The notes: generated by a model from the sequence alone, not told the origin. Shown: positions 7,629-48,852, numbered from the stretch's first letter. The stretch is 64,000 nucleotides of DNA from Bacillota bacterium (GCA_030691635.1 JAUYEF010000221.1:13929-77928); one strand, 5' to 3'. Translations and numbers: made by a program.

Positions 7629-7973
7629 TTAGTATAGCATAACAAAAACAGCCAAAGCAAGGAAACCAATCGTAATGTCGATTATGCGCCCTTTTTGAGG
7701 GTCTTTCTCGGAGTCCGGTTTGTCGTGCTTGCCCATCTTCTTCTCATGAGATGGGCTTTCGCGGCGCCCACGCGTCCCGCCTGCCTCGCCGTCTTCGATC
7801 CGCGTGGTGTCCGCACGCTCGAGTTGCGCCACGCTGGCGTTCTTTCTTTCGAGGTCTCTCCTGAAGTCGTGCACCGCCTGTTCGCCGGCTGCGTTCGGCC
7901 GGTCGCGCGGCTGGCTCAGCCGGGCGCCCTCCTGGCTCTTCCCCACCGCTGTCTGAAGGTCAAGAGGTTTCAT
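7629..7973 (-). CDS. hypothetical tail-anchored protein, last ORF of the flagellar gene string
   Basis: 114-aa ORF that is charged and low-complexity, with one C-terminal hydrophobic helix (IIDITIGFLALAVFVMLY). It starts 13 nt after the fapA-like stop. I recognise no family. Confidence 0.4.
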   Translation of the reverse strand: MKPLDLQTAVGKSQEGARLSQPRDRPNAAGEQAVHDFRRDLERKNASVAQLERADTTRIEDGEAGGTRGRRESPSHEKKMGKHDKPDSEKDPQKGRIIDITIGFLALAVFVMLY

Positions 7974-7985
7974 CTGGTAGGCGCC

Positions 7986-9368: not shown

Positions 9369-9387
9369 CGTAGCCGGACCTCCAGTC

Positions 9388-13396: not shown

Positions 13397-13403
13397 CGCT
13401 CGC

Positions 13404-14192: not shown

Positions 14193-14206
14193 TCATCTCT
14201 CCCCTT

Positions 14207-14473
14207 TCACCTGATGAAGCTGGGGAGAGCGAGCAACAGGCCGGACGTGAAGGCGACGAGTTTCTCCAGCATCCAGGGTCCGAAGAACAAAAGAGCGGCG
14301 AACGAAGCCAGTATCTTTGGGACGAAGACGAGCGTCTGTTCGTGGATCTGTGTCGTGGCCTGGAACAGGCTGACAAGTAGTCCCACCGCCAGGCTCGCGA
14401 CGATGATGGGCGCCGAGACCAGCAGCGCCACGCGCAGAGACTGTCGCCCGAGTTCCATGACTATGTCCGGCAT
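14207..14473 (-). CDS. fliQ: flagellar export apparatus protein FliQ
   Basis: 88-aa two-TM ORF (LLVSAPIIVASLAVGLLVSLFQATTQIHEQTLVFVPKI). Confidence 0.85.
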   Translation of the reverse strand: MPDIVMELGRQSLRVALLVSAPIIVASLAVGLLVSLFQATTQIHEQTLVFVPKILASFAALLFFGPWMLEKLVAFTSGLLLALPSFIR

Positions 14474-14485
14474 GTAATCCTCCCC

Positions 14486-15250
14486 CTAGCGAAAGCTCGA
14501 AACCAGAGACCGCGTGACAAGGTGCCAACCGTCGGCCAGCACAAACATCAGTATCTTGAACGGTAGAGACACCATCATCGGCGGCAGCATCAGCATCCCC
14601 ATGCTCATCAGCGTGCTGGCCACCACCATGTCGATCACGATGAACGGCAGGAAGACGACGAAGCCCATCTGGAACGCGGTCTTCAGCTCGCTGATCACGA
14701 AGGCCGGTATCACGGCCTTCATGGGCGCTTCGTCTCCGGCTCTGACGTCGACCCCAGTGAGGTCCGCGAACAGCGCGAGGTCCTTCTCCCTCGTCTGCCT
14801 GAGCATGAACTGTCTCACCGAACCCTCCGAGTACTTGAGCGCTTCGTTGAGTTTGATGTTTCCGGCAAGGTAGGGGCCGATGGCGTGAGAGTCGATATCC
14901 GACCATGTCGGCGCCATGACAAACACCGTGAGCACGAGCGCGAGCCCTATGAGCACCTGGTTCGGCGGCACCTGCTGAGTCGCGAGGGCGCTGCGGGTGA
15001 ACGAGAGCACCACGACGATCCTCACAAAGCTTGTCAGCAGCACCAGGATGGCAGGGGCCAGCGAGAGCACGGTAAGCAGCGCGAGCACCTGCAGCGCCTG
15101 GGCCATCTCTTCTGGCTTCTCCACCGCCTTGAGGCTGATCTCTACCGATGGAACGGTGACCGGTTGAGCCAGGCATGTTCCTGCGGCGCACAGCACCGGC
15201 AACAAAGCTATGAGGCACGCCACGGGATGCTTGCGAAGAGCGCCCAGCAT
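14486..15250 (-). CDS. fliP: flagellar export apparatus protein FliP
   Basis: Contains LLTSFVRIVVVLSFTRSALATQQVPPNQVLIGLALVLTVFVM and AFVISELKTAFQMGF. Start set at ATG 15250, 1 nt after the fliO stop; the track ORF extends to 15400. Confidence 0.9.
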   Translation of the reverse strand: MLGALRKHPVACLIALLPVLCAAGTCLAQPVTVPSVEISLKAVEKPEEMAQALQVLALLTVLSLAPAILVLLTSFVRIVVVLSFTRSALATQQVPPNQVLIGLALVLTVFVMAPTWSDIDSHAIGPYLAGNIKLNEALKYSEGSVRQFMLRQTREKDLALFADLTGVDVRAGDEAPMKAVIPAFVISELKTAFQMGFVVFLPFIVIDMVVASTLMSMGMLMLPPMMVSLPFKILMFVLADGWHLVTRSLVSSFR

Positions 15251-15251
15251 A

Positions 15252-15602
15252 TCAGTCCACGCTCCTCTGGCGGCGCCGCAGAGCGCGGCGGAGCGCCTGG
15301 CCGAACCCCGGGGCCGGCGCATGGACAGGCTCGCTTTCCACTTCGTCGAGCTCGTGCCTCGACATCTCACCGAGCCGGAAAAGCCCTTTGTCGGAGACAC
15401 CCAGCACGATCACTCGTGGCCCGGCGGACAGCAGGACCACCTGCTTCGACGGCCCGAGATACGCCCTGTCCAGTACCTTGAGAAGCCCGCCAGGACGCCC
15501 GCCGCGCTGCGCAAGCAGCCTTGAGCAGACAACGGATGCCGCCAGCACCCCGATGAGAAGCAAGGCCATCTCCACGATCTCCCTGAAAGCCACCTGAGTC
15601 AC
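15252..15602 (-). CDS. fliO: flagellar biosynthesis protein FliO (FliZ in Bacillus nomenclature)
   Basis: 116-aa ORF with one N-terminal TM helix and a LKVLDRAYLGPSKQVVLLSAGPRVIVLGVSDKGL core. Lies between fliN and fliP. Confidence 0.6.
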   Translation of the reverse strand: MTQVAFREIVEMALLLIGVLAASVVCSRLLAQRGGRPGGLLKVLDRAYLGPSKQVVLLSAGPRVIVLGVSDKGLFRLGEMSRHELDEVESEPVHAPAPGFGQALRRALRRRQRSVD

Positions 15603-16057
15603 CTCATGGTCGCCAGCCGCTCCGGCCGGCTTACTACCTCGCTGATACGAACGCCGAAGTTCTCGTCGATGACCACGACCTCGCCGCGGGCGAGCAGTCT
15701 CCCGTTGACCATCACATCGACCGGCTCGCCTGCCTGGCGGTCGAGCTCGACGACAGAGCCCGGCACCATGGCGAGCACTTCCCTGACGAGCTTCTTGGTG
15801 CGGCCGAGTTCCACGGCGACCTCCACCGGTATGTCAAGCACCAGGTCTATCGCCATGGGCCCAGACGCCCCTTCAGCCGGCGGAGGGGGTTCGTCGAACT
15901 CCTCGAATTCCTGGACGGCCTGGGACCCGGGACTGGGATCTTCCTGTACGCCCCCGGCCGGCGCGCTCCCGGCCGGCGCGCTCTCGGCCGTCGTGGTCTC
16001 GGCCGGCGCTCGCAGCAACTCGTCGATCTCTTCCTGTGAGAGAGGGGACTTACTCAT
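15599..16057 (-). CDS. fliN: flagellar motor switch protein FliN (no CheC-like domain)
   Basis: C-terminal SpoA/FliN domain (LDIPVEVAVELGRTKKLVREVLAMVPGSVVELDRQAGEPVDVMVNGRLLARGEVVVIDENFGVRISEV). The N-terminus carries LSQEEIDELL. Confidence 0.85.
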   Translation of the reverse strand: MSKSPLSQEEIDELLRAPAETTTAESAPAGSAPAGGVQEDPSPGSQAVQEFEEFDEPPPPAEGASGPMAIDLVLDIPVEVAVELGRTKKLVREVLAMVPGSVVELDRQAGEPVDVMVNGRLLARGEVVVIDENFGVRISEVVSRPERLATMR

Positions 16058-17054
16058 GTGGGTCCTCCTTGATCAGACTCTCTACGCGGATGCAAAGCCT
16101 TCGGCCCGACCGGCCGGGGGTGGCCAGGAACTTCGGTATGCCCTCGACCAGGACCGTGACGGGGCCCGCGGCCCGTGACTCGAGTTCGATGATGTCGCCA
16201 GACTCGATCTCCAGGATGTCACGCACACGAAGGTGCGCATGCCCGAGTTCCGCCGACACTCGGACCTCCACGCGCTTCAGCCGTGCCAGGAGGGTCTCGG
16301 TATCGGTCTTGCCGGGGCTCCGCCTTGACGCCGCAAACCAGTTCCGGGCCGAAAGCCTCGGCAGCACAGGCTCGAGCGTCATGAAAGGGATGCTGAAAGT
16401 CATGGAGCCGAGCGCTTTGCCGACTCTCATGTCGTACTTGATCACGACCGTCATCTCGTTGGCGGCTATGTTCTGGACGAAGCTCGGGTTGCTCGTCACG
16501 CTCTCGATTCTGGGCTCGACAGCCGCCAGCGACCGCCAGCCTTCTCTCACAGAAGACAGGATGCCTTCCATCAGCTTGTTTACGATGGCGATTTCGATCT
16601 CGGTGAGCCCCCGGCCGACATCTCGCACAAGTCCAGGACCGCCGAACAACCGGTCCACCATGACGAGCGCCACCGGGATATCCAGCGAAACGAACATCGG
16701 TCCCTTCAGGGGCTCCATGCCGATGGTGGCTATGTACCCCGGGCTGGGAAGCAGGCCGGTGAATTCCTCGAAGGTCATCGCGTCGACGGAGGACACGGCG
16801 ACGGTGGTCATCGCTCGCACCTGGGCCCCAAGGTACGTGGAGCAGAGCCGCGCGATATTCTCGTGGAGCATCTCCACGGTCCGGATCTGGTCGCGAGAGA
16901 ACTTGTCCGGCCTCTTAAAGTCATATACCCGGACAAGCCTTCTCTTGGGCCCGTTAGGGCCTTCCGGAGAGCTCGCAGCCTGGGCCGCCCTGTCGTTGTC
17001 CATGAGAGAGATGATGAGCGCATCCAGGTCCTTCTGAGTCAGTATCTCGGGCAC
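16050..17054 (-). CDS. fliM: flagellar motor switch protein FliM
   Basis: (M)PEILTQKDLDALI N-terminus, FKRPDKFSRDQIRT and a C-terminal SpoA-like domain. Start set at GTG 17054 (GGAGG 7 nt upstream). An alternative GTG at 17078 overlaps the fliL stop. Confidence 0.9.
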   Translation of the reverse strand: MPEILTQKDLDALIISLMDNDRAAQAASSPEGPNGPKRRLVRVYDFKRPDKFSRDQIRTVEMLHENIARLCSTYLGAQVRAMTTVAVSSVDAMTFEEFTGLLPSPGYIATIGMEPLKGPMFVSLDIPVALVMVDRLFGGPGLVRDVGRGLTEIEIAIVNKLMEGILSSVREGWRSLAAVEPRIESVTSNPSFVQNIAANEMTVVIKYDMRVGKALGSMTFSIPFMTLEPVLPRLSARNWFAASRRSPGKTDTETLLARLKRVEVRVSAELGHAHLRVRDILEIESGDIIELESRAAGPVTVLVEGIPKFLATPGRSGRRLCIRVESLIKEDPHE

Positions 17055-17077
17055 TCTCCCACCTCCCTCCGCGGCCA

Positions 17078-17503
17078 CTACTGGATCGCAAACTCGACGA
17101 AATAGATGGCTGAGATGCCGCCGTTAGCGAGCACCTTGTTGGTCCCTGCGACGAGATCGGCACCGAGACGCCTCATGCCCTCCGGACCTGCCAGGTCCGC
17201 GATCGTCTTGTTCCTGAGGACCATGAGCACCTGGTCACGGACCTGTGACGCCTTGACCTGCAGCTCTTTGGCCGCTTCCTCGGAGGAGGCTTCCATGTCG
17301 ATCTGGATCCTGACGAAGCGCCTGTTGTCTGCGCCCGCAAGGTTGGTGACGAACTCTCCCATCTTGACCAGCACCGGGCCGGCGGGCGGCGGCTCCGCGC
17401 GCCGCCTCTGCACATAGAAGTAGCCGCCTGCCGCAGCCAACGCCAGCACGACCGCGATTCCCAGCATGATCGCCCTTGACGCCTTCCTGGGTCTGACGCT
17501 CAC
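17078..17503 (-). CDS. fliL: flagellar basal-body-associated protein FliL
   Basis: 141-aa ORF with one TM helix, then FVTNLAGADNRRFVRIQIDMEA...IYFVEFAIQ. Confidence 0.75.
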   Translation of the reverse strand: MSVRPRKASRAIMLGIAVVLALAAAGGYFYVQRRRAEPPPAGPVLVKMGEFVTNLAGADNRRFVRIQIDMEASSEEAAKELQVKASQVRDQVLMVLRNKTIADLAGPEGMRRLGADLVAGTNKVLANGGISAIYFVEFAIQ

Positions 17504-18273
17504 TTCGGTCCCCCCTGTCCCGGCTTCTCGATCTCCCTGGGCTCCGTCCTCGACTGTTCGGTGCTCAGGATCACTATGTCCACCCTGCGGTTGAGCCGGC
17601 GCCCTGCCTCATCATCGTTGGGCGAGACAGGACGGTACTCCCCATAGCCCGCAATCGAGAGTCGCGAGGGAGGCAGGTCGAAGGCCACCGACAGATGCTG
17701 GAGGACCGCCACCGCCCTCGCGGCGGAAAGGTCCCAGTTGGTCGGAAACCGCAGCGTGTTGATCGGGAGGTAATCCGTGTGCCCCTCGATCCGGATGTCG
17801 TTCGGGATTCCCTTGATGGCCTCCCCGACTTTGTCGAGCGCAGCTATCGCCCCGGGCTTGAGGTCCGCCTTGCCGAGGTCGAACAGCACCTGGTCCCGGA
17901 AGCGTATCACGAGACCCCTGGGGTCCTGCTCCGCGGCCATCACCTCACCCAGGCCGCTCTCGACTATGTAGGCCTGGATGCGGCTCTGGATCTCGAGCAG
18001 CTGGGTCTCCGGCGAGGCTTCAGGAGCTATGGGGGCCGGCTCGACCGGCCCAGCGCCTGGGAGGACACCTGAACCCTTGCTCACGGGTCCCCCGCTCGGC
18101 GCTGTGCCGAATGTGGACTGGAGCGAGAAAGCTATCTTCTCGAACTTCCTCACGTTCAGCGTCGACAGCGCAAACAACAGCACAAAGAAAGTCATCAAGA
18201 GCGTGACCATATCGCCGTACGTCGTCAGCCAGTTGAGCTGCACGGGAGGATCCTCACTCCGCGATCGCCTCAC
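17500..18273 (-). CDS. motB: flagellar stator protein MotB (OmpA-like C-terminal domain)
   Basis: WLTTYGDMVTLLMTFFVLLFALS plug/TM region with the conserved Asp, and an OmpA-like end (IRIEGHTDYLPI...NWDLSAARAVAVLQHL...NRRVDIVI). Confidence 0.85.
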   Translation of the reverse strand: MRRSRSEDPPVQLNWLTTYGDMVTLLMTFFVLLFALSTLNVRKFEKIAFSLQSTFGTAPSGGPVSKGSGVLPGAGPVEPAPIAPEASPETQLLEIQSRIQAYIVESGLGEVMAAEQDPRGLVIRFRDQVLFDLGKADLKPGAIAALDKVGEAIKGIPNDIRIEGHTDYLPINTLRFPTNWDLSAARAVAVLQHLSVAFDLPPSRLSIAGYGEYRPVSPNDDEAGRRLNRRVDIVILSTEQSRTEPREIEKPGQGGPK

Positions 18274-19102
18274 GCGCGTCTCCCCCCCTTCCCTGTCCTT
18301 GTCCCTGCCCTCTGGTGGACGACCGCGTCTTGGGTGCGAGGAACGCGTTGAGCTTCTCCTCGACGATCCGCGGGTTATCGCCGGCCTGTATGGACAGGAT
18401 GCCTTCGACCATTACTTCCCGGATCAGGACCTCCTCGGCGCTCCTGCCTTTGAGCTTGTTGGAGAGAGGCGTGAACACCACGTTTGATAGCACAGACCCG
18501 TAGAACGTGGTGACCAGCGCGACCGCCATGCCTGGGCCGATCTTCTCTGGAGCATCGAGTGTGCCCAGCATCTGGATCAGGCCGATCAGCGTGCCTATCA
18601 TCCCGAAGGCGGGGGCCAGCGCCGCCCCGGTGTCGAACATGGCGGCGCCCGACTTGTGCCGGTTCTCCAGGAAACTCAGGTCTGTCTCCAGGATGTTCCT
18701 GACCAGCTCAGGATCGGTCCCATCGACGACAAGTTGCACGCCCTTTTTCAGGAAGGCATCCTGGGCCTTCGCCGCCTCATCCTCAAGCGCCAGGAGCCCT
18801 TCGCGCCTCGCCTTCTGTGCGTAGGCCACCAGAGTGGCGATCAGCTCAGCGGGGGGCATCATCTTGGTCCGGAAGGCGTTTCTCAAGATGCCCGGGACCG
18901 ATTTCACTCGTTCGAGCGGGTAGCTCGCGAGGACCGCGGCGAATGTGCCCCCCATGGTTATCAGGAACGATGGAAAGTCGACGAAAGCTTTCAGGGAGGT
19001 GGCGAACGACATGCCTGAGGCGGCGCCCCCGGCCACGATGCCCCAGCCGAGCAGCAACACACCCGATACAAGCCCTGCGACCGTGGAGATGTCCATTACC
19101 AT
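18254..19102 (-). CDS. motA: flagellar stator protein MotA
   Basis: 282-aa ORF with 4 TM helices and the MotA/ExbB-type C-terminal block (AFGMIGTLIGLIQMLGTL...GPGMAVALVTTFYGSVLSN). Confidence 0.85.
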   Translation of the reverse strand: MVMDISTVAGLVSGVLLLGWGIVAGGAASGMSFATSLKAFVDFPSFLITMGGTFAAVLASYPLERVKSVPGILRNAFRTKMMPPAELIATLVAYAQKARREGLLALEDEAAKAQDAFLKKGVQLVVDGTDPELVRNILETDLSFLENRHKSGAAMFDTGAALAPAFGMIGTLIGLIQMLGTLDAPEKIGPGMAVALVTTFYGSVLSNVVFTPLSNKLKGRSAEEVLIREVMVEGILSIQAGDNPRIVEEKLNAFLAPKTRSSTRGQGQGQGRGGDAREAIAE

Positions 19103-19299
19103 TCCTGCTCCACTTCCGCATGTATTACCGCTCTGCGGTACGCGAGCGTGCGCTGCGAGATCTGGGTGACCGTCTCCTGGACGATGATGCGCTTGCCCGT
19201 TGTGAGCGTCACCACCGTGTCGGGGGTGGCCTCAACCGTCTCGATCAGCTCGGCGTTTATCACAAGCTCCGAGCCGTCAAGTCTCGTGACCATGATCAT
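19096..19299 (-). CDS. flbD: flagellar protein FlbD
   Basis: 67-aa ORF MIMVTRLDGSELVINAELIETVEATPDTVVTLTTGKRIIVQE, the typical FlbD pattern. Lies upstream of motA as in Clostridia-type operons. Confidence 0.75.
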   Translation of the reverse strand: MIMVTRLDGSELVINAELIETVEATPDTVVTLTTGKRIIVQETVTQISQRTLAYRRAVIHAEVEQEW

Positions 19300-19321
19300 C
19301 CACCAAACCTCCCCGTCAGGC

Positions 19322-20548
19322 CTACCGTTTCAGATTCGCCAGCTCCTGGAGCATCTCGTCCGACGCCGTGATGATCCGGGAACTCGCCTGGAAACCGCGC
19401 TGCGTGATGATCATGTTGGTGAACTCAGCCGCGAGGTCCACGTTTGACATCTCCAGAGACGCGGGGGCGATCGCTCCGGTGCCGCTCGAGCCGGGCGCGT
19501 CCACCCTGCACAGCCCGGCGTTTGCCGTCTCGATGGATAGGCCTTCGCCTATCTTCAGGAGCCCGGCCGGGTTGGGGAAAAACGCTAGCGCCACCTGCGC
19601 GATGGGCTGGTTGGCGCCGTTCGAGTACGCTCCGGTGATGACGCCCTGTGAGTCCACCGTGAAGGACTTCAGCACACCGGGCCCCGAGCCGTCGGAACCG
19701 CTCAGCTCTGCGGTGGAAACGCCGTCTGGCGACGAGAACTGCGTCATCTCGTCGAACTGTGGGTCGATCACGATGTCCTCCGCCGCGGGCGCGGCTATCG
19801 TGATCAGGCCTTCGTCCTCAGAGTCGAAGGCGCCGTCTGGGCCGAATATGATGGTGCCCGTGCTCCCGGGCGCCACTCCGGCGCCTGTCGCCGTCCATGT
19901 CCACTCACGAAGCCCGGCCGTTTTCTCGAAACTGACGGTCACATCGTGTGAGTTGCCGAGCGAGTCGTAAGCCCCGAAGGCGACATTCACCTGCGTGCCC
20001 ACCGGGGCCCCGGAGTCCAGGTTCCGGGTAAACTGCGCCGCTTCCGTGGGCTTCGCGGGGATTCCCTTGCCCATCGGAATCCTGAGGTCGGTCATGGTCT
20101 CGCGATTCCGCGTTCCGAACTCGCCCGATGCGGCCATCCAGCCTTTCACGCGCATCCCCTGTACGCTCACCAGGTAGTCCTGCCCGTCTCTCCTGAGGTC
20201 GCCGGCGCGCGAGTAGTACTTGCCGGAGCCGTCGCTGAGGATGAAGAACCCGTCTCCCTGTATCGCCATGTCCGTCATGAGGCCGGTGGTCTGGACATTC
20301 CCTGGAATGTTGACCGAGTCGATGCTCCCGAGAGCCATCCCCAGGCCGATCTGCATGGGGTCCTGGCCCCCGGCGTACTCCCCGGGCGATGAGCCGCCTC
20401 TGAGCGTCTGGCTGAAGACCTCCTGGAAGTTGACCCTGCTCGACTTGAACGCCACGGTATTGATATTGGCGATGTTGTTGCCGATCACGTCCATCCTTGT
20501 CTGGTGATTCCTGAGACCGGAGATCCCGGAAAACAACGAACGCATCAT
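19322..20548 (-). CDS. flgE: flagellar hook protein FlgE
   Basis: MMRSLFSGISGLRNHQTRMDVIGNNIANINTVAFKSSRV N-terminus and a conserved C-terminus (LEMSNVDLAAEFTNMIITQRGFQASSRIITASDEMLQEL). Confidence 0.9.
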   Translation of the reverse strand: MMRSLFSGISGLRNHQTRMDVIGNNIANINTVAFKSSRVNFQEVFSQTLRGGSSPGEYAGGQDPMQIGLGMALGSIDSVNIPGNVQTTGLMTDMAIQGDGFFILSDGSGKYYSRAGDLRRDGQDYLVSVQGMRVKGWMAASGEFGTRNRETMTDLRIPMGKGIPAKPTEAAQFTRNLDSGAPVGTQVNVAFGAYDSLGNSHDVTVSFEKTAGLREWTWTATGAGVAPGSTGTIIFGPDGAFDSEDEGLITIAAPAAEDIVIDPQFDEMTQFSSPDGVSTAELSGSDGSGPGVLKSFTVDSQGVITGAYSNGANQPIAQVALAFFPNPAGLLKIGEGLSIETANAGLCRVDAPGSSGTGAIAPASLEMSNVDLAAEFTNMIITQRGFQASSRIITASDEMLQELANLKR

Positions 20549-21042
20549 GCGTAACCGACCTCCCTTTGTCCGGTCAACCTGTGCCTGCCGTGCGCGCCTC
20601 GGGCCCCCTCGTTGAGGTCCAGCCCACCGATGATGACGGCGCTATCAATGTTGGTGAAGACCCCTTCCTTGAGCCGCGAGCCACCCAGGGCGGTGATCAC
20701 CGTGCGGTTGGGGACGCTGACCACGAAAGCCAGTCCGTCCATCAGCACTAGCGACTCCCTCGCCCCCTTTTCTCCTGCCGCGTCGATCGCCCCGGCCAGG
20801 CGCTCAATGTCCGGGCGTGTCAGGCTGCGGCCTGCCTGCTCCAACCTCGCCCAGGCATGACCGGAAAGGCTCATGCCGCAATCGCTGCAGCACCTCCTGA
20901 GTTCGGCCTCGAAACTGGCGCTGCACTCCCGGTGGCCGGCCGCCCGGGAGTGCCGGCTGCCCGCTGTGGGAGATGCCGGAGCCCCTGGCGAAGCGGTTGG
21001 GGCCTTAGCGCCCGGCGCCATCCGAACGTGGTCCGGCTGCAT
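20545..21042 (-). CDS. flagellar operon protein of the TIGR02530-like family
   Basis: C-terminal half LSGHAWARLEQAGRSLTRPDIERLAGAIDAAGEKGARESLVLMDGLAFVVSVPNRTVITAL...VFTNIDSAVII matches my recollection of this small family, which is found between flgD and flgE in Firmicutes. The N-terminal 55 aa are low-complexity. Confidence 0.6.
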   Translation of the reverse strand: MQPDHVRMAPGAKAPTASPGAPASPTAGSRHSRAAGHRECSASFEAELRRCCSDCGMSLSGHAWARLEQAGRSLTRPDIERLAGAIDAAGEKGARESLVLMDGLAFVVSVPNRTVITALGGSRLKEGVFTNIDSAVIIGGLDLNEGARGAHGRHRLTGQREVGYA

Positions 21043-21441
21043 CTAAGAACCCTCCTTCCATATTGCCGACAGAGCGTTCATGGGCACTCTCTGGCCACAG
21101 ACCTCAACCAGCATGCCTGCATCTCCTGTGACGAGTGCGGTGATCTCTCCCTCCACGGGCCCGCCTGTTGTCTCGGCGCGGGCATACAGGCCGATCAGGG
21201 TGGCGGCCTTGAACAGGTCCTGACCTCCACCAGCCATGCGTTCGAGAAGCGCGTTGCCACGCTTGATCTCATCGAGCTCGGAGAACTGGGCGGCCTGCGA
21301 GATGAACTCTGCCTCCTCGAGAGGCTTCAGCGGGTCCTGGTGCTGGAGTTCGACCACAAGCAGCCTCAGGAAGTCCCGGGTCTCGAGTCCAAGGCTGCGG
21401 GTGTACCCCCTGGCCTCGGCGTTTACCGGTGACACTTGCAT
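21043..21441 (-). CDS. flgD: flagellar hook capping/assembly protein FlgD
   Basis: LGLETRDFLRLLVVELQHQDPLKPLEEAEFISQAAQFSELDEI is the FlgD signature. Start set at ATG 21441 (GAGGAG 7 nt upstream); the track ORF extends to 21648, antisense-overlapping fliK. Confidence 0.8.
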   Translation of the reverse strand: MQVSPVNAEARGYTRSLGLETRDFLRLLVVELQHQDPLKPLEEAEFISQAAQFSELDEIKRGNALLERMAGGGQDLFKAATLIGLYARAETTGGPVEGEITALVTGDAGMLVEVCGQRVPMNALSAIWKEGS

Positions 21442-21454
21442 CGTCATTCTCCTC

Positions 21455-22594
21455 TCATGCGATGGTGTCGAGAATCCTTGATGCTCCGGGCAACAGAGAG
21501 ACGCTATGTTCGGACGGCGAATCGCGCGAACGTTCCGGCCCACAGGCATGCTGGTGGCCCGGAGTGAATGCCCTGCCACCAGAGTCCGAGTCCTGCCCCG
21601 TCTGGCCGCCCGCCCATGACAGCGACAGGCCGACCGACATATGCTCAACCGCCACCCCTGTACGGGCCAGGTCCTGGGTCAGGCCGCCGAAGCCCTGCCT
21701 GAGCGCGCCGAGCGCGCCCTGCGTGTTCACCCGGAACGAGGCCACCAGGCCCTTCGGCGCGGATACAAGGCGCAGCCAGACGCTCCCGAGGTTCTCTGGC
21801 TCCAGCACCATCCGTATCTCGGGATGGCTGGATGCGTTGCCAGGCTCGGACATCCTCGCCGCCCGCGCGGCAGCCGTGCCGCTTGTCGCCGGGCCGCCGT
21901 GGCCCTCACGCGGCGCAAGAACGGTTTCCGGGGACGACGTTGGTGGCAGGGCCTGCGCTGCGGACTGGGCTGCGGTCGCTTCACCGCGGTCCGCCTTCAC
22001 GGCAGCCGCCGTGCGGGTTGCGGATACCGGAATCGTCTTTTCTGGATCCGCGCGGTCCTCTAGGCCGCCTGGCAAGTCCTGTGCGGGGGTGCCGCGGGGC
22101 CAATGGTCCAGCAAGCCATCTGAAGGAGTTCCACCGGAGAAGCGGTCAGGACCTGACGAGTCCTTCACCTGGCCCTCAAGTTCTGTGGCGTACCGCGCCG
22201 AGCGCACAGCCGCTGTATGCCTGGGCACGGGCTGGGTGGACACCTCTTCCGTTCCCTGCGTCACAATGGCGGTACCGGCGACCGCACCTGCAGGGCTTTG
22301 GAGCGTGGGCGACGCGGGTGCAGCGCCGTCCGGGTCAAGCTGGCCGGACTGCGACTGCTCGCCGGGCACAGGCAGGACTCGCCCCGCCTGCCGCACGACG
22401 TCGCTGGCCTGCGCCGGAGCGGGCGTGGGAGTCTCCCCCGCTCCGCCCATGAGGCAGCCCAGCAGCAGGCACGCAAAGCTCAGGCCCAGGACGTCTGCCG
22501 GGCCCGCTCCGGCGCAGGCCGTGGCGCGGCCGGCCGGTGCCCCAGGAGCCGGTGCGATACCCGGCGGTGATGCCGGACATGTGATGTTTTCCAT
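21455..22594 (-). CDS. fliK: flagellar hook-length control protein FliK
   Basis: 379-aa ORF with a Pro/Ala/Gly/Thr-rich N-terminal ruler and a C-terminal Flg_hook-like domain (EIRMVLEPENLGSVWLRLVSAPKGLVASFRVNTQGALGALRQGFGGLTQDLARTGV). Confidence 0.7.
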   Translation of the reverse strand: MENITCPASPPGIAPAPGAPAGRATACAGAGPADVLGLSFACLLLGCLMGGAGETPTPAPAQASDVVRQAGRVLPVPGEQSQSGQLDPDGAAPASPTLQSPAGAVAGTAIVTQGTEEVSTQPVPRHTAAVRSARYATELEGQVKDSSGPDRFSGGTPSDGLLDHWPRGTPAQDLPGGLEDRADPEKTIPVSATRTAAAVKADRGEATAAQSAAQALPPTSSPETVLAPREGHGGPATSGTAAARAARMSEPGNASSHPEIRMVLEPENLGSVWLRLVSAPKGLVASFRVNTQGALGALRQGFGGLTQDLARTGVAVEHMSVGLSLSWAGGQTGQDSDSGGRAFTPGHQHACGPERSRDSPSEHSVSLLPGASRILDTIA

Positions 22595-23035
22595 CTATCT
22601 CACCTCCCTTCGCGCCCTGAACATGTCGTCGAGTTCGCGGCCATCCTCACGGTTGGCCCGGTACAGGTGGTCCGCCGCGCGTCTCCGCCTCAACCTTTCG
22701 AGCGTCTTCCTGTCGCGCCGCGCCACAAGCAGGGTATCCTGCGATCCGGCCACTTCTCGTGAGGCAGCCGCGACCAGCACGTTCTGGGCCCGCTCCAGCA
22801 GGTCAAGCCCCGACATATGTTCTTCTTCCCATCCGGCGGCGGATGTCGAGAAGGACGCACCGAGCACGAGACAAAGCCTTCGCCTCGACGCCTCCGCTCG
22901 AGCGCGTGTGTTCTGTCGCTGGCCCTGTGCGTGAGATAGGGCCAGCCTTGCGGCGACCAGCCGGGTCTCGCAGACGCGCTCCCGGGCCTTCCGGACGTCC
23001 AGGACTCGCTCAAGCCTGAAGACGAACCGCCTCAA
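22595..23035 (-). CDS. fliJ: flagellar export chaperone FliJ
   Basis: 146-aa predicted coiled coil starting MRRFVFRLERVLDVRKARERVCETRL. Lies immediately after fliI. Confidence 0.65.
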   Translation of the reverse strand: MRRFVFRLERVLDVRKARERVCETRLVAARLALSHAQGQRQNTRARAEASRRRLCLVLGASFSTSAAGWEEEHMSGLDLLERAQNVLVAAASREVAGSQDTLLVARRDRKTLERLRRRRAADHLYRANREDGRELDDMFRARREVR

Positions 23036-23048
23036 CGCGACACCTCAC

Positions 23049-24395
23049 CTAGAACGGGCAGCCGGCCCGTCCAGAGATTTCCGCCAGCCGCTCGACGGCT
23101 TCCGCGAAACTCGACTTCTCCCGTAGACCCTGGCTGAGATAGGCCCTGACATCGCCTGTCAGCGCGATCGCGAAATCTATCCTGGGATTCGAACCCGGCA
23201 CATAGGCGCCGATATTGATCAAGTCCTGCGCGTCGCGGTAGGTGGCAGAGACAGCCCTGAGCACCTGCGCGGAGCGCTGGTGCTCGGCGGAAGTGACGTG
23301 CGGCATGGCCCTGGACACGCTGGCCAGCACATCGACCGCGGGGTACTGGCCGAGCGATGCTATCTCCCGCGACAGCACGATATGGCCGTCCAGCGTGCCC
23401 CGAATCGCGTCTGAGATGGGCTCGTTGAAGTCGTCGCCGTCCACCAGCACCGTGTAGAACGCGGTTATCGTGCCGCGCGCCGCGGCCCCCGTCCGCTCGA
23501 GAAGCCGAGGCAAGGTTGAAAATACAGATGGTGTGTAGCCTCTCGTGGCGGGCGGCTCGCCAGCGGCCAGGCCCACCTCACGCTGCGCCATGGCGAACCT
23601 GGTGACGGAATCCATCACGAACAGCACATCGAGTCCCTGGTCCCGGAAGTATTCGGCGATGGTCGTGGCAACGAAGGCGGCCTTCACCCGGATGAGCGGC
23701 ATCTGGTCGGAAGTGGCGCAGACCACACATGACCTCGCGAGGCCCTCTGGCCCCAGCTCGCGCTCGACGAACTCGCGCACTTCCCTCCCGCGTTCCCCAA
23801 CCAGGGCCACGATGCTAACGTCGGCGGCCGTGTTTCGCGCCATCATCCCGAGCAGCATGCTCTTGCCAACACCGCTGCCGGCGAAAATCCCGAGCCGCTG
23901 TCCTCTGCCGCAGGTCAGCGGGCCGTCTATGCACCTGACCCCCACCGGCAGAGGCTCGGCGATGGGCTTCCTCTCAAGCGGTTTCGGCGGCGATGCCTGC
24001 ACCGGGTACCACGCATCCACGTGTAGGGGACCTTTGCCATCCACTGGACGGCCGAGACCGTCGAGAACGCGTCCCAGCACTCCAGGGCCGACACCGACCT
24101 TCAGCGGCGACCCGCCTGCTATGACTCGCACTCCGGGTTCGATGCCGCCCATCTCGCCGAGCGCCATGAGCACGGTCTGGTCCCCGGAAAAGCCGACAGT
24201 CTCGGCCATGAGCGCCTCGCCGCCCCGGCCGGCTATCTCACAGATCTCACCTACCTGCGTCCTGGGGCCGCGGCTTTCGATCGTAAGCCCGATGACCTTG
24301 CTGACCCTCCCGGAGACAACGACCGGGTCAAGGCCCTCAAGCCTCCTGAAGTACTTTGATAGGTCGATCCGGCCGGGTGCGCTGGCCTCAGCCAT
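23049..24395 (-). CDS. fliI: flagellum-specific ATPase FliI
   Basis: Walker A GIFAGSGVGKSMLLGMM, Walker B VLFVMDSVTRFA, and F1-ATPase-like architecture. Start set at ATG 24395; the track ORF extends to 24446. Confidence 0.95.
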   Translation of the reverse strand: MAEASAPGRIDLSKYFRRLEGLDPVVVSGRVSKVIGLTIESRGPRTQVGEICEIAGRGGEALMAETVGFSGDQTVLMALGEMGGIEPGVRVIAGGSPLKVGVGPGVLGRVLDGLGRPVDGKGPLHVDAWYPVQASPPKPLERKPIAEPLPVGVRCIDGPLTCGRGQRLGIFAGSGVGKSMLLGMMARNTAADVSIVALVGERGREVREFVERELGPEGLARSCVVCATSDQMPLIRVKAAFVATTIAEYFRDQGLDVLFVMDSVTRFAMAQREVGLAAGEPPATRGYTPSVFSTLPRLLERTGAAARGTITAFYTVLVDGDDFNEPISDAIRGTLDGHIVLSREIASLGQYPAVDVLASVSRAMPHVTSAEHQRSAQVLRAVSATYRDAQDLINIGAYVPGSNPRIDFAIALTGDVRAYLSQGLREKSSFAEAVERLAEISGRAGCPF

Positions 24396-25071
24396 GGCGG
24401 TCGACACCTCCAAACGCGGTGGCCACGCGCTCGAGCTGGGTGGCAATTCGCTCGTCGATCATGCCTCTTGATGTCTCGATCACGCAGTCGCCCGGCTCGA
24501 GCGCCGGGTCTTCCTCAAACCTCAGGCTTGCCGTGCGGCCATTCGTCCCTGGGCCTGAGCAGAGAGGCGCGAGGACCGTCGCGCTTGACGGGGAGACCCG
24601 CACGGTCACTGCCGTCCCATCTTCCACGCGGGCGATCGCGTCTTTCACCAGGCTCACAGCGGCTGCAGGGTCAAGTCCGATTTCCCGTTTCAGGATGAGC
24701 GAAGCCACCTCTATCGCCAGCCTGGCCACCTGCGGCTCCGCCTCCCTTATCGCGACCCGCCGCTGCTCTGCCGCCAGGTCCAGCTCCCTGTGGGCCTCGT
24801 CGACGCGCGATTGCGCCTCATGCGCCCCGGCCTCATAGCCCTGCTTCCTTCCCTCTTCGAAACCCCGCTCTTCTGCCGCCAGGGCCGCTGCGCGGGCCGA
24901 GTCCATAGCCTTCCGGATTATCTCCTCCGCGCGCTCCCGGGCCTTCCGCAGCAGGTCCGATGGCCTGCATGGCGCCTGGGCGCCGGCGACCTCCAGCAGC
25001 GCGACCGGCCACGGCCCGGCGCCCGGCCGCCCTGCCCGCGACTTGTGGAGCCTAGACGACAATCTCGTCAC
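24388..25071 (-). CDS. fliH: flagellar assembly protein FliH
   Basis: 227-aa ORF with a charged coiled-coil middle (EEGRKQGYEAGAHEAQSRVDEA) and a FliH/YscL-like C-terminus (LAIEVASLILKREIGLDP...IDERIATQLERV). Lies between fliG and fliI. Confidence 0.7.
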   Translation of the reverse strand: MTRLSSRLHKSRAGRPGAGPWPVALLEVAGAQAPCRPSDLLRKARERAEEIIRKAMDSARAAALAAEERGFEEGRKQGYEAGAHEAQSRVDEAHRELDLAAEQRRVAIREAEPQVARLAIEVASLILKREIGLDPAAAVSLVKDAIARVEDGTAVTVRVSPSSATVLAPLCSGPGTNGRTASLRFEEDPALEPGDCVIETSRGMIDERIATQLERVATAFGGVDRHG

Positions 25072-26077
25072 CCCCGCCGCGTGCGATTATGATCTCGCCC
25101 TCTTCTTCCAGTCGCCTGACCTGATTGACTATCCGCGTCTGTGCCTCTTCAACATCCCTGAGCCTGACCGGGCCGAGGAACTCAATGCTCTCGAGCAGGT
25201 TCTCGGCTGCTCGCTTGGACATGTTCGCCTGGATCTTCCGCTTCAGGTCTTCGCTGGCGGTTTTCAGGGCCATCGGCAGATCGCGGTTAAGGTCCACCTC
25301 GCGCAGCACGCGCTGGACGGCCCTGTCGTCGAGGTACAAGATATCTTCGAAGAGGAACATCCTCCGCTTTATCTCATCCGTGAGGTCCGGGTCCTCGACT
25401 GACAGCATCTCGAGGATGTTTTTCTCTGTGGCCCGGTCGACACGGTTCAGCACCTCGACGACTGCGCCGATGCCTCCCGCGGCCGCGAACCCGCGGGTCA
25501 CGAGTGACGCGAACTTCTTCTCCAGCACGGACTCGACTTCGTGTATGACCTCCGGAGACGTGCGGTCCATGATGGCGACGCGCTTCGCCACATCAACCTG
25601 CCGTTCCGGAGGAAGCGCGGAGAGCACGACGGATGCCTGGTCCGGGTGCAGGAAGGCCACTATCAGCGCGATCGTCTGTGGGTGCTCTCCCTGGATGAAG
25701 TTGATGAGCTGGGCGGGGTCGGTGCCCCGCACGAACTCGAACGGCCTGAGTTGCAGCGTTGACGTCAGTCTTGAGACGATGTCGTGGGCTTTTTGCGGCC
25801 CGAGCGCCTTTTCCAACACCTCCTGGGCGTAGTCCATGCCGCCTGACGCAAGGTATTCCTGTGCCATGCACAGCTCGTGGAACTCCTCGAACACCCTGTC
25901 CTTGGTTTCTGTTTCCACACGAGCCGTGGTCGCTATCTGGAGCGCGATCCTTTCGATTTCCTCATCACGGAGGTGCTTGAGCACTTTCGAAGATGTCTCT
26001 GGCCCCAGCGAGATGAGCAGCACGGCCGCTTTCTCGTGGCCCGCGAGAGGCGCCGGCTGTTTCAGCACCGGCGTCAT
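25052..26077 (-). CDS. fliG: flagellar motor switch protein FliG
   Basis: 341-aa ORF with GHEKAAVLLISLGPETSSKVLKHL, EDPDLTDEIKRRMFLFEDI and RAAENLLESIEFLGPVRLRDVEEAQ. Confidence 0.93.
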   Translation of the reverse strand: MTPVLKQPAPLAGHEKAAVLLISLGPETSSKVLKHLRDEEIERIALQIATTARVETETKDRVFEEFHELCMAQEYLASGGMDYAQEVLEKALGPQKAHDIVSRLTSTLQLRPFEFVRGTDPAQLINFIQGEHPQTIALIVAFLHPDQASVVLSALPPERQVDVAKRVAIMDRTSPEVIHEVESVLEKKFASLVTRGFAAAGGIGAVVEVLNRVDRATEKNILEMLSVEDPDLTDEIKRRMFLFEDILYLDDRAVQRVLREVDLNRDLPMALKTASEDLKRKIQANMSKRAAENLLESIEFLGPVRLRDVEEAQTRIVNQVRRLEEEGEIIIARGGGDEIVV

Positions 26078-27657
26078 CGCCTATCCTCCAGCATCCACGT
26101 GCGTATCAGTTGGGCGGCGCTTTCCGGGCTTTGCCTCGCCGCTCGTTCGACGATCTCTTTGAGCCGACGCTTCTTCTCCTGTTCGCGGTCCACCAGGGGC
26201 GGGAGTGTCTCGAGGCTGTCGCGCGCCGCCTGCGCCGCTGCCATGATAGCCTGTGCGGGGTCGAGTCCTGGGCGGTCCCTGGACGCCGCGGTCTTGCGCC
26301 GACTGATCAGGGCGGCCAGGAGCAGGAGCAACACCGCCGCAGCGCCACCAGCCGCAAGCATCCAGGGCTCGATCCCGGCCGCCGTGGGCTGCTTTGGCTG
26401 CTCCTCCATCTGCTTCTTGATGGCATCGAGCATCGAGGTGTCGAAGGCGATTCCAGTGACGGCGATGGTGTCCCGGCGTACTGTGTCAAAGCCGATCGCA
26501 GCGGCCACCGTCTTTTCAATAGCCTGCCTGCTCGCCTCGTCCAGAGCCTTGTTGACGACCACGGCGACGGACAACCGCTTTACCGACCCGGGCGCGATGA
26601 CGGTCCTCTCCTTGACCTCGCTGATCTCGTAGTTCCGGGTCGTGTCCCGCTTGTGCCAGTCGCTGGAACCCACCGGTCCAGGCGTCTGGTACTGCGGGAT
26701 GTTGGAGGTCGTCCCAGGGACTCCGGATGGCGCGGCGCCCTCGCCTTTGAACGTCTCCTCGAGTTCCTGCATGCTCCTGAGGATGCCGTCGGCGGCCGGC
26801 TGGTACAGGGTCCGGTCTATGGTCTTCTGGTCCATGTCAAGTTCCGCTCGTACTCTCGTGACCACGTTTCCGGGGCCCAGGACACGCTCCAGCAGCGACT
26901 GCAGGCCTTTCTCCAGTTCCGCCTGGAACGTCTCCTGGGTCCCGAGGCCCGACGCATATGGCCCCGCGCCACCTACGTCCGGCTGCGGATCACCGGACAG
27001 GAGCCTGCCGTACAGGTCGATGACCGCCACGTCCTCCGGCTTGAGGCCCTCCACGCTCCTCGAAACCAGGTGGACGATCCCTTTCACCTGGATCCGCGAG
27101 AGCTCGGAATGTGGGGCAAGCTTGAGAAAGACGGCCGCGGTCGCCGGTTTTGCCCTGGACGCGAAGTACGTGTTCTCCGGAATGGCCACGTGGACTCGAG
27201 CGTCCTCCACGCCCTCGATCTCCCGGATCGTGCGCACGAGTTCGCCGCTCAGGGCGCGGAGGTAGCTTATCCTCCTGTCGAAATCCGTCGTGCCCAGAGA
27301 CGCCTTGTCCAGGAGTTCGAAACCGGCGACGCCCCCCTTCGGGAGCCCCTCTCCGGCCAGGTAGAGGCGCGTGCTGGGGATGGAGTTCGCCAGGACCATG
27401 ATGGTGCTGCCGCCCGCCGACAGGCGGTAAGGGATCTTGCGCTGCTCCAGCTTCTGGATGATCTCAGACGCGTCACCGGAGTCAAGCCCCGAGAAGAGCA
27501 TCTCGTAGCGGCTGTTGCCAGCATAGGAGACTGCCCAGAGGTAGACCAGCCCGCCGAGCAGAGCTGCAAGCGCCAGGCCGAGCCCGGCTCTAGCGCCCTG
27601 CGGCAGGCTCGAGATTCGCTTTCTGGCCTCGCCGGCCAGACCCAAGAGACCGTTCAA
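26074..27657 (-). CDS. fliF: flagellar MS-ring protein FliF
   Basis: 527-aa ORF with an N-terminal TM helix, YscJ/FliF ring domains (YEMLFSGLDSGDASEIIQKLEQRKIPYRL) and a second TM helix near the C-terminus. Confidence 0.93.
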   Translation of the reverse strand: MNGLLGLAGEARKRISSLPQGARAGLGLALAALLGGLVYLWAVSYAGNSRYEMLFSGLDSGDASEIIQKLEQRKIPYRLSAGGSTIMVLANSIPSTRLYLAGEGLPKGGVAGFELLDKASLGTTDFDRRISYLRALSGELVRTIREIEGVEDARVHVAIPENTYFASRAKPATAAVFLKLAPHSELSRIQVKGIVHLVSRSVEGLKPEDVAVIDLYGRLLSGDPQPDVGGAGPYASGLGTQETFQAELEKGLQSLLERVLGPGNVVTRVRAELDMDQKTIDRTLYQPAADGILRSMQELEETFKGEGAAPSGVPGTTSNIPQYQTPGPVGSSDWHKRDTTRNYEISEVKERTVIAPGSVKRLSVAVVVNKALDEASRQAIEKTVAAAIGFDTVRRDTIAVTGIAFDTSMLDAIKKQMEEQPKQPTAAGIEPWMLAAGGAAAVLLLLLAALISRRKTAASRDRPGLDPAQAIMAAAQAARDSLETLPPLVDREQEKKRRLKEIVERAARQSPESAAQLIRTWMLEDRR

Positions 27658-27673
27658 AAGGCCTTCACCCCGG

Positions 27674-27958
27674 TCAGACCTGCATTCGCATTATCTCTAG
27701 ATAGGCCTCGAGCATCTTGTTCCTCACGGAGATCGCGAGCTGCAGCCCGAGCGTGGCCTTTTCGCTTGCGATCACGGCTGTGTGGATGTCGGCGTCTTCC
27801 TGGGATAGCAGTGAGAGGACGGCCGCGTCGGCCTGGTCCTCAAGAGCCCCAGCCTTCTCAATCGCAGTCTCCAGGGCTTCTCTGAAGCCGCCCCGCGTGG
27901 CCTGCTGGGCCGCTTCAGGATACCCCATTCCCACCCGGCCCAATGGCTGTACCGGCAC
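27674..27958 (-). CDS. fliE: flagellar hook-basal body protein FliE
   Basis: 94-aa ORF ending ASEKATLGLQLAISVRNKMLEAYLEIMRMQV. Confidence 0.8.
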   Translation of the reverse strand: MPVQPLGRVGMGYPEAAQQATRGGFREALETAIEKAGALEDQADAAVLSLLSQEDADIHTAVIASEKATLGLQLAISVRNKMLEAYLEIMRMQV

Positions 27959-27969
27959 GCGTAACCCCC

Positions 27970-28374
27970 CTATCCTCTACCGATCTCGAGAGCTTTGGAA
28001 GCAAGCGCCTTCGCCGTGCTCACCAGGGTGGCGTTGGCCTCGTATGCCCTCATAGCGGTGATGAGGTCCACCATCTCTCTGACCGGTTCGACATTGGGAA
28101 ACATCACGTAGCCGTCGCTGCCGGCGTCAGGATGCCCAGGGTCGTGGACTCTTTTCAGCGGCGACTGGTCATCTCTCACGGCCACGACTCTGACCCCCTT
28201 TGGACCGTCCGCGCCGGTATCCTCGGCGAAGACCGGCATCTTCCGCCGGTAGGGCCCGCCGGCCTCAGTCCTTGTGCTGTTCGCGTTGGCTATGTTTGAG
28301 GCGATGATATCCATCCTCAGCCTTTCGGCCGTCATTCCCGAGGCGCCCGCATCCATCGTCCGGAACACGCGCAC
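27970..28374 (-). CDS. flgC: flagellar basal-body rod protein FlgC
   Basis: 134-aa ORF with SGMTAERLRMDIIASNIANANSTR and a YPNV-like motif (MFPNVEPVREMVDLITAMRAYEAN). Confidence 0.9.
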   Translation of the reverse strand: MRVFRTMDAGASGMTAERLRMDIIASNIANANSTRTEAGGPYRRKMPVFAEDTGADGPKGVRVVAVRDDQSPLKRVHDPGHPDAGSDGYVMFPNVEPVREMVDLITAMRAYEANATLVSTAKALASKALEIGRG

Positions 28375-28376
28375 GT

Positions 28377-28766
28377 CTACCGCCTCCCTTCAGTTATCGC
28401 CAGGCGCAGTCTCTGGAACTTGTCGCTCAACTGGCGGGAGAGCGCGGCGAAGTACACAGAGTTTTCGGCGGCCTGGACCATCTCATACTCGATGTCCACG
28501 CTGTTGCCGTCTGTGCGGGCGCTGGAGTTCTGGCGCACAAGCCCCGGCTCGCCCTCGACCGCCCGGGGAGCCATGTGCCTTTCGTGAGTACCCGCAAGCG
28601 TGCGCCGGGAACGCATCGCATCGCACAGCGCTGTGGCGAACTCCACGTCGAGCCGTTTGTAGTTGGGCGTGTTGGCGTTCGCGACATTGTGCGAGAGCGC
28701 CCAGGACCTCAGAGAGGATGCGTCTAAGGCCTGTTCCAACAGGCTGAAGGCCGAGCCTTGCGGCAT
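28377..28766 (-). CDS. flgB: flagellar basal-body rod protein FlgB
   Basis: LSHNVANANTPNYKRLDVEF rod-protein signature. Start set at ATG 28766 (GGGAGGG 8 nt upstream). The 11 upstream codons of the track ORF overlap the terminator-like hairpin. Confidence 0.88.
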   Translation of the reverse strand: MPQGSAFSLLEQALDASSLRSWALSHNVANANTPNYKRLDVEFATALCDAMRSRRTLAGTHERHMAPRAVEGEPGLVRQNSSARTDGNSVDIEYEMVQAAENSVYFAALSRQLSDKFQRLRLAITEGRR

Positions 28767-28785
28767 CTTCGGTTCCCTCCCAGAC

Positions 28786-28819
28786 AAAAAGCCCTCCATC
28801 CGATTAAGGAAAAAGGGCT
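28786..28819 (-). terminator. terminator-like hairpin of the flgB riboswitch expression platform
   Basis: The minus-strand RNA reads AGCCCUUUUUCC-UUAAUC-GGAUGGAGGGCU. That is 12 stem positions: 11 pairs (two of them G.U) and one mismatch. It is followed by a U-run (UUUUG). It lies between the aptamer and the flgB Shine-Dalgarno. Confidence 0.55.
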
Positions 28820-28825
28820 CACAAA

Positions 28826-28925
28826 GCGTGCTGGTCCTTCGGCAACCCGGCGGTCATGGCCATCTGGCTTTAGACCCGTAGCTTTGCGTCCCCACCTTTC
28901 GGTGGGTTTGCCCTTTCGATAACCC
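28826..28925 (-). promoter_or_regulatory. c-di-GMP-I (GEMM-I) riboswitch aptamer in the flgB leader
   Basis: The minus-strand RNA reads CGAAAGGGCAAACCCACCGAAAGGUGGGGACGCAAAGCUACGGGUCUAAAGCCAGAUGGCCAUGACCGCCGGGUUGCCGAAGG. It contains the GEMM-I hallmarks: GCAAA, a GAAA-capped hairpin, GACGCAAAGC, and CGGG...GCCGGGUUGCCG. The core is 37/41 identical to the second copy at 48.19 kb, with an A-U to G-C covariation in the GAAA hairpin stem. Confidence 0.85.
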
Positions 28926-29027
28926 CGGTATGGTCTTTGGAATGCGGAGGTATGTTTCTACATCAGTCTGATAACTCCTTCTCACGGATAAAGATTTTCT
29001 TACGTTTCTGAGCCATCTAGGCGCGCC

Positions 29028-29060
29028 AACACAGAAGGCGGCGCTTTTGACGCCGCCTTC
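29028..29060 (-). terminator. intrinsic terminator candidate downstream of codY
   Basis: The minus-strand RNA reads GAAGGCGGCG-UCAAAAG-CGCCGCCUUC (10-bp stem) followed by UGUGUU, about 33 nt after the codY stop. Confidence 0.55.
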
Positions 29061-29093
29061 CGCTATTCACAACCTCTGTCTATGAGCCGGCCG

Positions 29094-48282: not shown

Positions 48283-48431
48283 GGGAAAGATGCCCCTCAC
48301 CCGTCGCCTCCTCCGGCTGTCACCGGGAAGACCCCCTTACCAGGATCTCTCCGGCATCGCCCAGCGCAGCAGCAACGAGCGGCAACAGGAACCGGACCCA
48401 TTTCATGCCACCGGATGAGGGCGGGGATCGC

Positions 48432-48839: not shown

Positions 48840-48852
48840 AGGAGGAGTCTCC

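Follow-up and report, generated by a model that had tools for sequence, protein, structure and literature searches.

The closest described counterpart of the leader element analysed here is Cd1 (Cdi-1-3), a class-I c-di-GMP aptamer in the flgB leader of Clostridioides difficile: it is an OFF switch that gives a terminated product, and sigD is among the genes of the operon (PMC6366702). In published work c-di-GMP is an inhibitor both of swimming motility and of the expression of flagellar genes (PMC6366702). The picture of Cd1 that has been established by NMR, ITC and Markov modelling is one in which the aptamer and the terminator coexist, and in which an antiterminator that competes with both of them is only transiently stable (PMC9262584). 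The flgB gene of C. difficile has a SigA promoter, a 496-nt UTR and an invertible flagellar switch (PMC7438776). Another class-I riboswitch, Bc1, belongs to the Bacillus cereus group; it has a long expression platform and two rho-independent terminators, 28 bp apart, ahead of a gene other than flgB (PMC11218506).

Our analysis concerns a window of 64,000 nucleotides from the MAG of an uncultured Bacillota bacterium, in which flgB is preceded by an element that is essentially an ordinary further example of the device already established by C. difficile Cd1. We consider it most probable that this element is a class-I c-di-GMP riboswitch by which transcription of the flagellar operon that begins with flgB is switched OFF. 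The outcome is a confident regulatory assignment for a 21-kb operon in a MAG; current understanding is not overturned, and the finding will not surprise specialists. It does indicate that c-di-GMP riboswitch control of an early flagellar operon is not confined to C. difficile, and, as a variant that is naturally compact (the flgB ATG is 71 nt from the end of the aptamer) and has a different predicted antiterminator strand, it can be set beside Cd1.

We compared the two systems from published descriptions and not by direct sequence alignment. In both, a class-I aptamer lies on the coding strand ahead of flgB, the first gene of an operon that exceeds 20 kb and includes sigD; both have a downstream intrinsic terminator that is compatible with the aptamer, an OFF response being expected here; and in both a second c-di-GMP riboswitch stands before a pilus locus in the same genome. 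The antiterminator that we predict here would, like that of Cd1, be transient and compete with aptamer and terminator. A preliminary description of this DNA had named Cd1 as the precedent, and the published account (PMC6366702) agrees. On the other hand, our host is an uncultured Bacillota (window G+C ~62%) with a codY-flgB gene order, its leader is short, with no room for an invertible flagellar switch, and the antiterminator that we predict captures 5' and core strands of the aptamer, whereas that of Cd1 uses the 3' strand of P1 (PMC9262584). The features of the C. difficile leader that are missing here define the C. difficile locus and not the riboswitch class. The likeness to Bc1 lies in a class-I aptamer in Bacillota, which in Bc1 acts through rho-independent termination; here there is one terminator, and the downstream gene is flgB.

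A short leader between codY and a 27-gene flagellar operon

The leader lies within a gap of 327 nt (earlier given as 330 nt) between codY (29094-29873) and flgB; its features are collected in Table 1. Further upstream is hslU, and the ORFs beyond it look, when their translations are read by eye, like hslV, xerC and trmFO. B. subtilis shares this order, codY-flgB included. An exact-sequence look-up of CodY gave no match, and exact protein clusters trace the window to a MAG labelled 'Bacillota bacterium'. In the genome collection, which contains no close relative, the best match to CodY (72%) is from a Symbiobacterium MAG. The arms of the hairpin that directly follows codY (GGCGGCG/CGCCGCC) are kept in four of five lineages, the sequence of L086 differing at this point. 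This hairpin is likely to be the codY terminator, parting the flgB leader from upstream transcription; because it probably ends the codY transcript, the flgB leader is likely to be a transcription unit of its own.

Table 1. Coordinates of features in and around the flgB leader, in window numbering
Feature	Position	Strand	Basis
Flagellar operon, 27 genes	7629..28766	-	Pfam and NCBIfam matches, ORF layout
flgB Shine-Dalgarno GGGAGGG (28781-28775) and ATG (28766-28764)	28764..28781	-	sequence
U-tract UUUUGU after the hairpin	28784..28789	-	sequence
Intrinsic-terminator hairpin	28790..28819	-	folding, conservation
Predicted AT2, 3' strand: linker segment GCUUUGUG	28820..28827	-	alignment, pair counts
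P1 helix closing the aptamer	28833..28924	-	aptamer-constrained folds
c-di-GMP-I (GEMM-I) aptamer	28838..28922	-	RF01051, helix covariation
Predicted AT2, 5' strand: CGCAAAGC, in the aptamer core, holding the A47 equivalent	28881..28888	-	folds
Predicted AT1, 5' strand: GAAAGGGC, inside the aptamer, holding the G20 equivalent	28910..28917	-	folds
Promoter-like motif AGGAGTT-N13-AGAA	28956..28979	-	conservation
codY 3' hairpin, directly after codY	29033..29061	-	dG -26.9 kcal/mol, z -4.7

The genes of the operon are, in order, flgB, flgC, fliE, fliF, fliG, fliH, fliI, fliJ, fliK, flgD, a TIGR02530 gene, flgE and flbD; motA, motB, fliL, fliM, fliN, fliO, fliP, fliQ, fliR, flhB and flhA; and finally sigD (9388-10170), a FapA-family gene and a 114-aa ORF without a family match, after which come rpsB and tsf. 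FlgB is recognised by TIGR01396 (97.2 bits, cut-off 59) and the sigD product is placed in the FliA/WhiG family by TIGR02479 (264.8 bits, cut-off 189.6); the earlier count of 27 genes from flgB down to 7629, sigD included, is upheld. When spacing was taken after re-picking sigD, flgD and fliO-flhB, with start codons unrefined, consecutive genes either overlapped or were separated by gaps of at most 22 nt. Terminator-like sites within the operon occur at the level of chance (12, against 9.3 +/- 3.3 expected). This tight packing and the lack of an excess of internal terminators are consistent with the view that the whole flagellar regulon would depend on the leader element, internal promoters being possible.

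We also noted that flhA and the FliA/WhiG sigma gene are direct neighbours that overlap by 4 nt (window 7629-10170, minus strand), and that flhF, flhG and che genes are absent; the B. subtilis fla/che operon differs in this respect (flhF, flhG, che). No GGDEF, EAL or PilZ domain was found among the scanned ORFs, which are part of those in the 64-kb window.

A conserved class-I c-di-GMP aptamer

The identity of the aptamer was shown as follows. Rfam cmscan returned an RF01051 match of 88.7 bits, far above the gathering score of 35 (E 3.1e-16), and this match spans positions 1-87 of the 87 in the model, i.e., it is not truncated. P2 is a CCCACC-GAAA-GGUGGG hairpin with a GNRA-type tetraloop, after which GGGUCUAAAGCC...GGCCAUGACC aligns to the RF01051 consensus; the core reads GACGCAAAGC, and P3, with strands CGGG and GCCGGGUUGCCG, bears a receptor-like bulge (CUAAAG/CAUGA). 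The preliminary description had called a class-I c-di-GMP riboswitch from its GEMM-I blocks (GCAAA, the GNRA-capped hairpin, the core and the two P3 strands); all of them are found on the minus strand, and the call is strengthened by the full-length match, by canonical nucleotides at the ligand-contact positions and by helix covariation: in a set of 12 homologous aptamers, 10 of the 21 pairs show compensatory changes. In the RF01051 alignment these contact positions are g28912, a28885 and c28842, which we take to be the equivalents of G20, A47 and C92 of Vc2. The equivalence to G20 is backed by PMC9262584.

P1 is formed by pairing of UCG (28919-28917) with CGA (28841-28839) and of GGUU (28924-28921) with GACC (28836-28833); it is present in every aptamer-constrained fold, both of the window and of its relatives, and its 3' ACC is invariant. 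Common ground with Vc2 and RF01051 comprises the match over the whole model, the G/A/C ligand contacts, the tetraloop (GAAA) and the receptor-like bulge in P3; a difference from Vc2, most studies of which used the aptamer in isolation, is that our element has a clear terminator-type expression platform. One further detail of the sequence is that in GACCGCC (28849-28852, minus strand) a C replaces the well-conserved A of the RF01051 consensus GAC-AG-CC; L095 shares this C, and L001 has a G at the same position.

Evidence that the element is conserved was derived from contigs to which FlgB relatives could be traced, at identities of 99, 86, 74, 68 and 64%. The call had been expected to weaken if relatives lacked the element; all 11 of the 11 contigs carry the aptamer (73.6-90 bits), and the gap is ~330 nt throughout. 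In an alignment of five lineages, column identity from the aptamer through to the ATG is 89%, well above the 64-86% identity of FlgB, and the aptamer itself is nearly invariant. At a greater distance, 3 of 16 codY loci (mostly labelled Bacillota) have an aptamer of the c-di-GMP-I clan right after codY, as judged by Rfam, and 5 of 80 metagenomic flgB loci, an unbiased sample with FlgB identities of 33-48%, also carry an aptamer; in this survey Rfam was applied to 20 loci and a regular expression for the core to the remainder. The scan of metagenomes with a FlgB profile gave distant relatives only, and was used as a survey, being unsuited to the study of within-lineage covariation.

A terminator compatible with the aptamer, and a predicted competitor of both

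The leader hairpin was confirmed by direct folding: it reads AGCCCUUUUUCC-UUAAUC-GGAUGGAGGGCU, with a loop of 6 nt and a stem in which 11 of 12 positions are paired, two of them as G-U, the exception being a U-U mismatch. The dG of -17.4 kcal/mol (z -4.21) was not equalled by any of 200 shuffles. The preliminary description had reported just such a hairpin, with 11 pairs, one mismatch and a U-run, followed by the flgB Shine-Dalgarno sequence and ATG, an order that the sequence bears out; the 16 nt that it placed between aptamer and hairpin holds when counted from the block quoted at the time, and becomes 18 nt when counted from the Rfam aptamer end. U28790 is the last base of the stem and, together with the U-tract, gives a run that reads UUUUUGU; TTTTTGT is invariant in 5 of 5 lineages. 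In the pair counts for these five lineages, 85% of the cells of the terminator are paired, as compared with 38-67% in slid controls, and there are zero compensatory changes. In 28500-29400 a simple terminator and promoter scan found no sigma-70 promoter and passed over the leader hairpin, presumably on account of the U-U mismatch inside the stem.

A hairpin and a U-run follow the aptamer in all 13 flgB-linked lineages, and in the distant ones (8 of 8) the hairpin is strong and lies before the flgB ribosome-binding site. The flgB leaders of distinct sequence that have this layout of aptamer plus terminator number at least 13, of which five belong to close relatives of one another; their lineages are diverse and for the most part uncultured, and those with a name are labelled Bacillota. 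In L061 (4950-4990) and L106 (610-650), the 3' strand of P1, CGGUAG, can pair with a downstream GCUAC/ACUAC to give a small hairpin ahead of the main terminator, which suggests that the expression platform of these two differs and has multiple hairpins.

Another structure to emerge from the folding is one that appears when the leader is folded free of ligand: GAAAGGGC pairs with GCCCUUUU (AT1), and CGCAAAGC pairs with GCUUUGUG (AT2). In this way GCCCUUUU, which is the terminator 5' arm (28818-28811, minus strand), doubles as the AT1 3' strand. Across the five lineages, 92.5% of the cells of AT1 are paired, and 95% of those of AT2, in which there is one change from G-U to G-C, at the pair G28887/U28821; for AT1+AT2 together the value is 93.8%, and the slid-partner controls for terminator and antiterminator gave 19-69%. 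The same pair counts contain zero compensatory changes for the antiterminator, a shuffle test of the linker-aptamer duplex was not significant (z -0.6 to -2.2), and no consistent pattern was seen when AT1/AT2-like pairing was sought in the eight distant lineages. The 5' strands would be conserved anyway, because they are part of the invariant aptamer core; the independent conservation evidence for the putative antiterminator is that GCUUUG and GCCCUU are invariant inside an otherwise variable linker. AT1+AT2 is a structure that we predict from conservation and energetics.

The direction of switching, which could not be decided by eye, was approached by folding with and without aptamer constraints. 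When the consensus pairs and a short P1 were enforced, the folds always contained the terminator, with which the aptamer shares no nucleotides: the two can coexist. At the stage before the terminator 3' arm is made, the minimum-energy fold is AT1+AT2 in 5 of 5 lineages (-44.6 to -51.6 kcal/mol), and it is ahead of the aptamer fold at this same stage (-28.8 to -33.2 kcal/mol) by 15-18 kcal/mol. AT1+AT2 keeps a lead of >5 kcal/mol up to the appearance of the final 5 nt of the 3' arm; from then on, the terminator is ahead by only ~2.4 kcal/mol. At full length, the terminator is part of the most stable fold even when there is no ligand, so regulation would have to be kinetic. When two states are taken to be at equilibrium, a bonus of at least 6 kcal/mol from the ligand is estimated to tip the balance to aptamer plus terminator. 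Since AT1+AT2 uses the equivalents of G20 and A47, it would exclude ligand binding. Bearing in mind that aptamer and terminator are compatible, and that the sole strong alternative consumes both the terminator 5' arm and the binding core, the OFF direction is favoured: we predict a kinetically controlled switch, in which high c-di-GMP would terminate transcription before flgB.

We hypothesize the following order of events. Transcription would probably start at a conserved promoter-like motif, ~25 nt upstream of the aptamer. If the emerging aptamer has c-di-GMP bound to it, its binding core and the helices P1 to P3 would be locked, leaving the downstream GCCCUUUUUCC free to pair with GGAUGGAGGGC; this hairpin and the U-tract would then end transcription before flgB. 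If there is no ligand, the newly made linker segment and the terminator 5' arm would instead invade the aptamer, pairing with the strands that carry the equivalents of A47 and G20, respectively. The resulting transient antiterminator would withhold the 5' arm during the passage of the polymerase over the U-tract, and read-through would allow transcription of the 27-gene operon, its flagellar sigma factor included.

Some of these data could also be accommodated if the aptamer binds c-di-GMP and the hairpin and U-tract are a constitutive or leaky attenuator, or a structure that stabilises the 5' end, with control exerted by another route (Rho, RNA stability or translation) and no ligand-set choice between terminator and antiterminator. 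Such an arrangement, which we consider unlikely, would fit with a full-length minimum that is the terminator whether or not the aptamer is formed, with an antiterminator that has neither covariation nor a significant shuffle test, and with the second aptamer of the window (see below), which has no intrinsic terminator. It sits less well with the recurrence of hairpin and U-run after the aptamer in 13 of 13 flgB-linked lineages; it is further opposed by the flgB Shine-Dalgarno sequence, which is free in every folded state, and by the case of Cd1, whose energetics are the same and for which action through termination has been demonstrated (PMC9262584). CCUCC (28950-28946), which pairs with that Shine-Dalgarno sequence in the full-length fold, was considered as an anti-Shine-Dalgarno element and rejected: it is not conserved.

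The opposite wiring, an ON switch in which c-di-GMP binding would prevent formation of the terminator and raise flagellar gene expression, is in our estimation highly unlikely. The terminator co-forms with the aptamer in all constrained folds, its sole strong competitor destroys the aptamer, and published work has c-di-GMP inhibiting flagellar genes and swimming motility (PMC6366702); these points outweigh the precedent that highly similar GEMM-I aptamers can be wired either way, the pilM riboswitch being an ON switch (PMC9262584).

Identity of the ligand

That c-di-GMP is the ligand of the flgB-leader aptamer is something that we infer from the nucleotides at the contact positions and from the company that the aptamer keeps. 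The best model is RF01051 itself, the equivalent of G20 is a G and not an A, the equivalents of A47 and C92 are canonical, and the gene context is that of Cd1, a validated c-di-GMP switch. It would be very improbable, on this evidence, for the aptamer to sense a different cyclic dinucleotide (e.g., 3'3'-cGAMP, as in GEMM-Ib) or some other ligand. What speaks for that possibility is that cGAMP riboswitches were first annotated as c-di-GMP-I, that position 20 is a selectivity factor and not a hard filter (PMC9262584), and that a C stands in place of the conserved A in the GAC-AG-CC segment. A match without function, be it a relic in decay or a resemblance due to chance, is effectively refuted by conservation, the element being almost invariant where FlgB is down to 64% identity; the E value of 3e-16 also speaks against it.

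A promoter-like motif upstream of the aptamer

Within the window, the promoter-like motif at 28979-28956 sits in an invariant alignment block; it is a candidate for the flgB promoter. Its extended consensus is AGAAGGAnTTw-N9-TGTmGAA. All 13 lineages with the riboswitch (the window, L001, L009, L061, L082, L086, L087, L090, L095, L097, L099, L106 and L131) have the motif, 25-74 nt before the aptamer, as compared with 0.13 expected from shuffles, and it also occurs in 13 of 75 flgB loci that have no riboswitch. It appears to resemble the consensus of sigma-H promoters; in this the candidate differs from the SigA promoter of C. difficile flgB.

A second aptamer ahead of a Tad pilus locus

We also observed a second aptamer of the c-di-GMP-I clan (48185-48276, plus strand; 76.3 bits, with RF03167 as its best model), upstream of a Tad/Flp pilus locus (48432-55213) that consists, in order, of tadE (start at 48432), a TadG-like gene, cpaB/rcpC, a gene for a TadZ-like ATPase with a receiver domain, cpaF, tadB and tadC. 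This aptamer is kept upstream of tadE in two relatives (L174, 958-1050; L175, 960-1051), one on the contig of the flgB relative L090 and the other from the metagenome sample of L087; it is absent from one distant Tad locus. It has a long P1; there is no intrinsic terminator, and folding fits neither ON nor OFF decisively.

Assignment of this second aptamer to the c-di-GMP-I-GGC variant (RF03167) was considered and rejected: it reads ACGCAAAGCC, with the canonical A at the variant-defining position, and its alignment to RF03167 has a mismatch at the A47 equivalent (model ACGCGAA, with G there). We take a G at this position to define RF03167, on our own reading of the model consensus. That RF03167 scores higher is probably due to the P1 included in this model and to the variable loop of P3.

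A flagellar switch is paired with a pilus switch in C. difficile too; there, the pilus-linked aptamer is of class II and precedes pilA1, whereas here it is of class-I type and precedes the Tad locus. The Tad-locus aptamer and the common promoter motif are leads on the co-ordination of motility and adhesion. We suggest tentatively, and with more doubt than conviction, that the two class-I-type aptamers, ~19 kb apart, form a reciprocal motility-adhesion circuit. Within it, the flgB OFF switch may use an antiterminator that sequesters ligand-contacting nucleotides, unlike Cd1, the Tad-locus aptamer may act without an intrinsic terminator, and the flagellar unit would be driven by the conserved sigma-H-like promoter and not by SigA. 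Were this circuit real, flagellar synthesis would be tied to a transition-state sigma factor in many riboswitch-bearing lineages.

Directly after the second aptamer is a 42-aa ORF (48290-48418, plus strand) with an SD-like AGGGGA and a coding-like GC3; we rejected it as a gene, its ATG being lost in relatives, which also have a 2-nt indel that breaks the frame; the purine-rich stretch is instead the 3' strand of P1 of the aptamer. The divergent neighbour of this riboswitch and its tad locus is selA, the gene for selenocysteine synthase (46529-47914, minus strand), which is kept in both L174 and L175.
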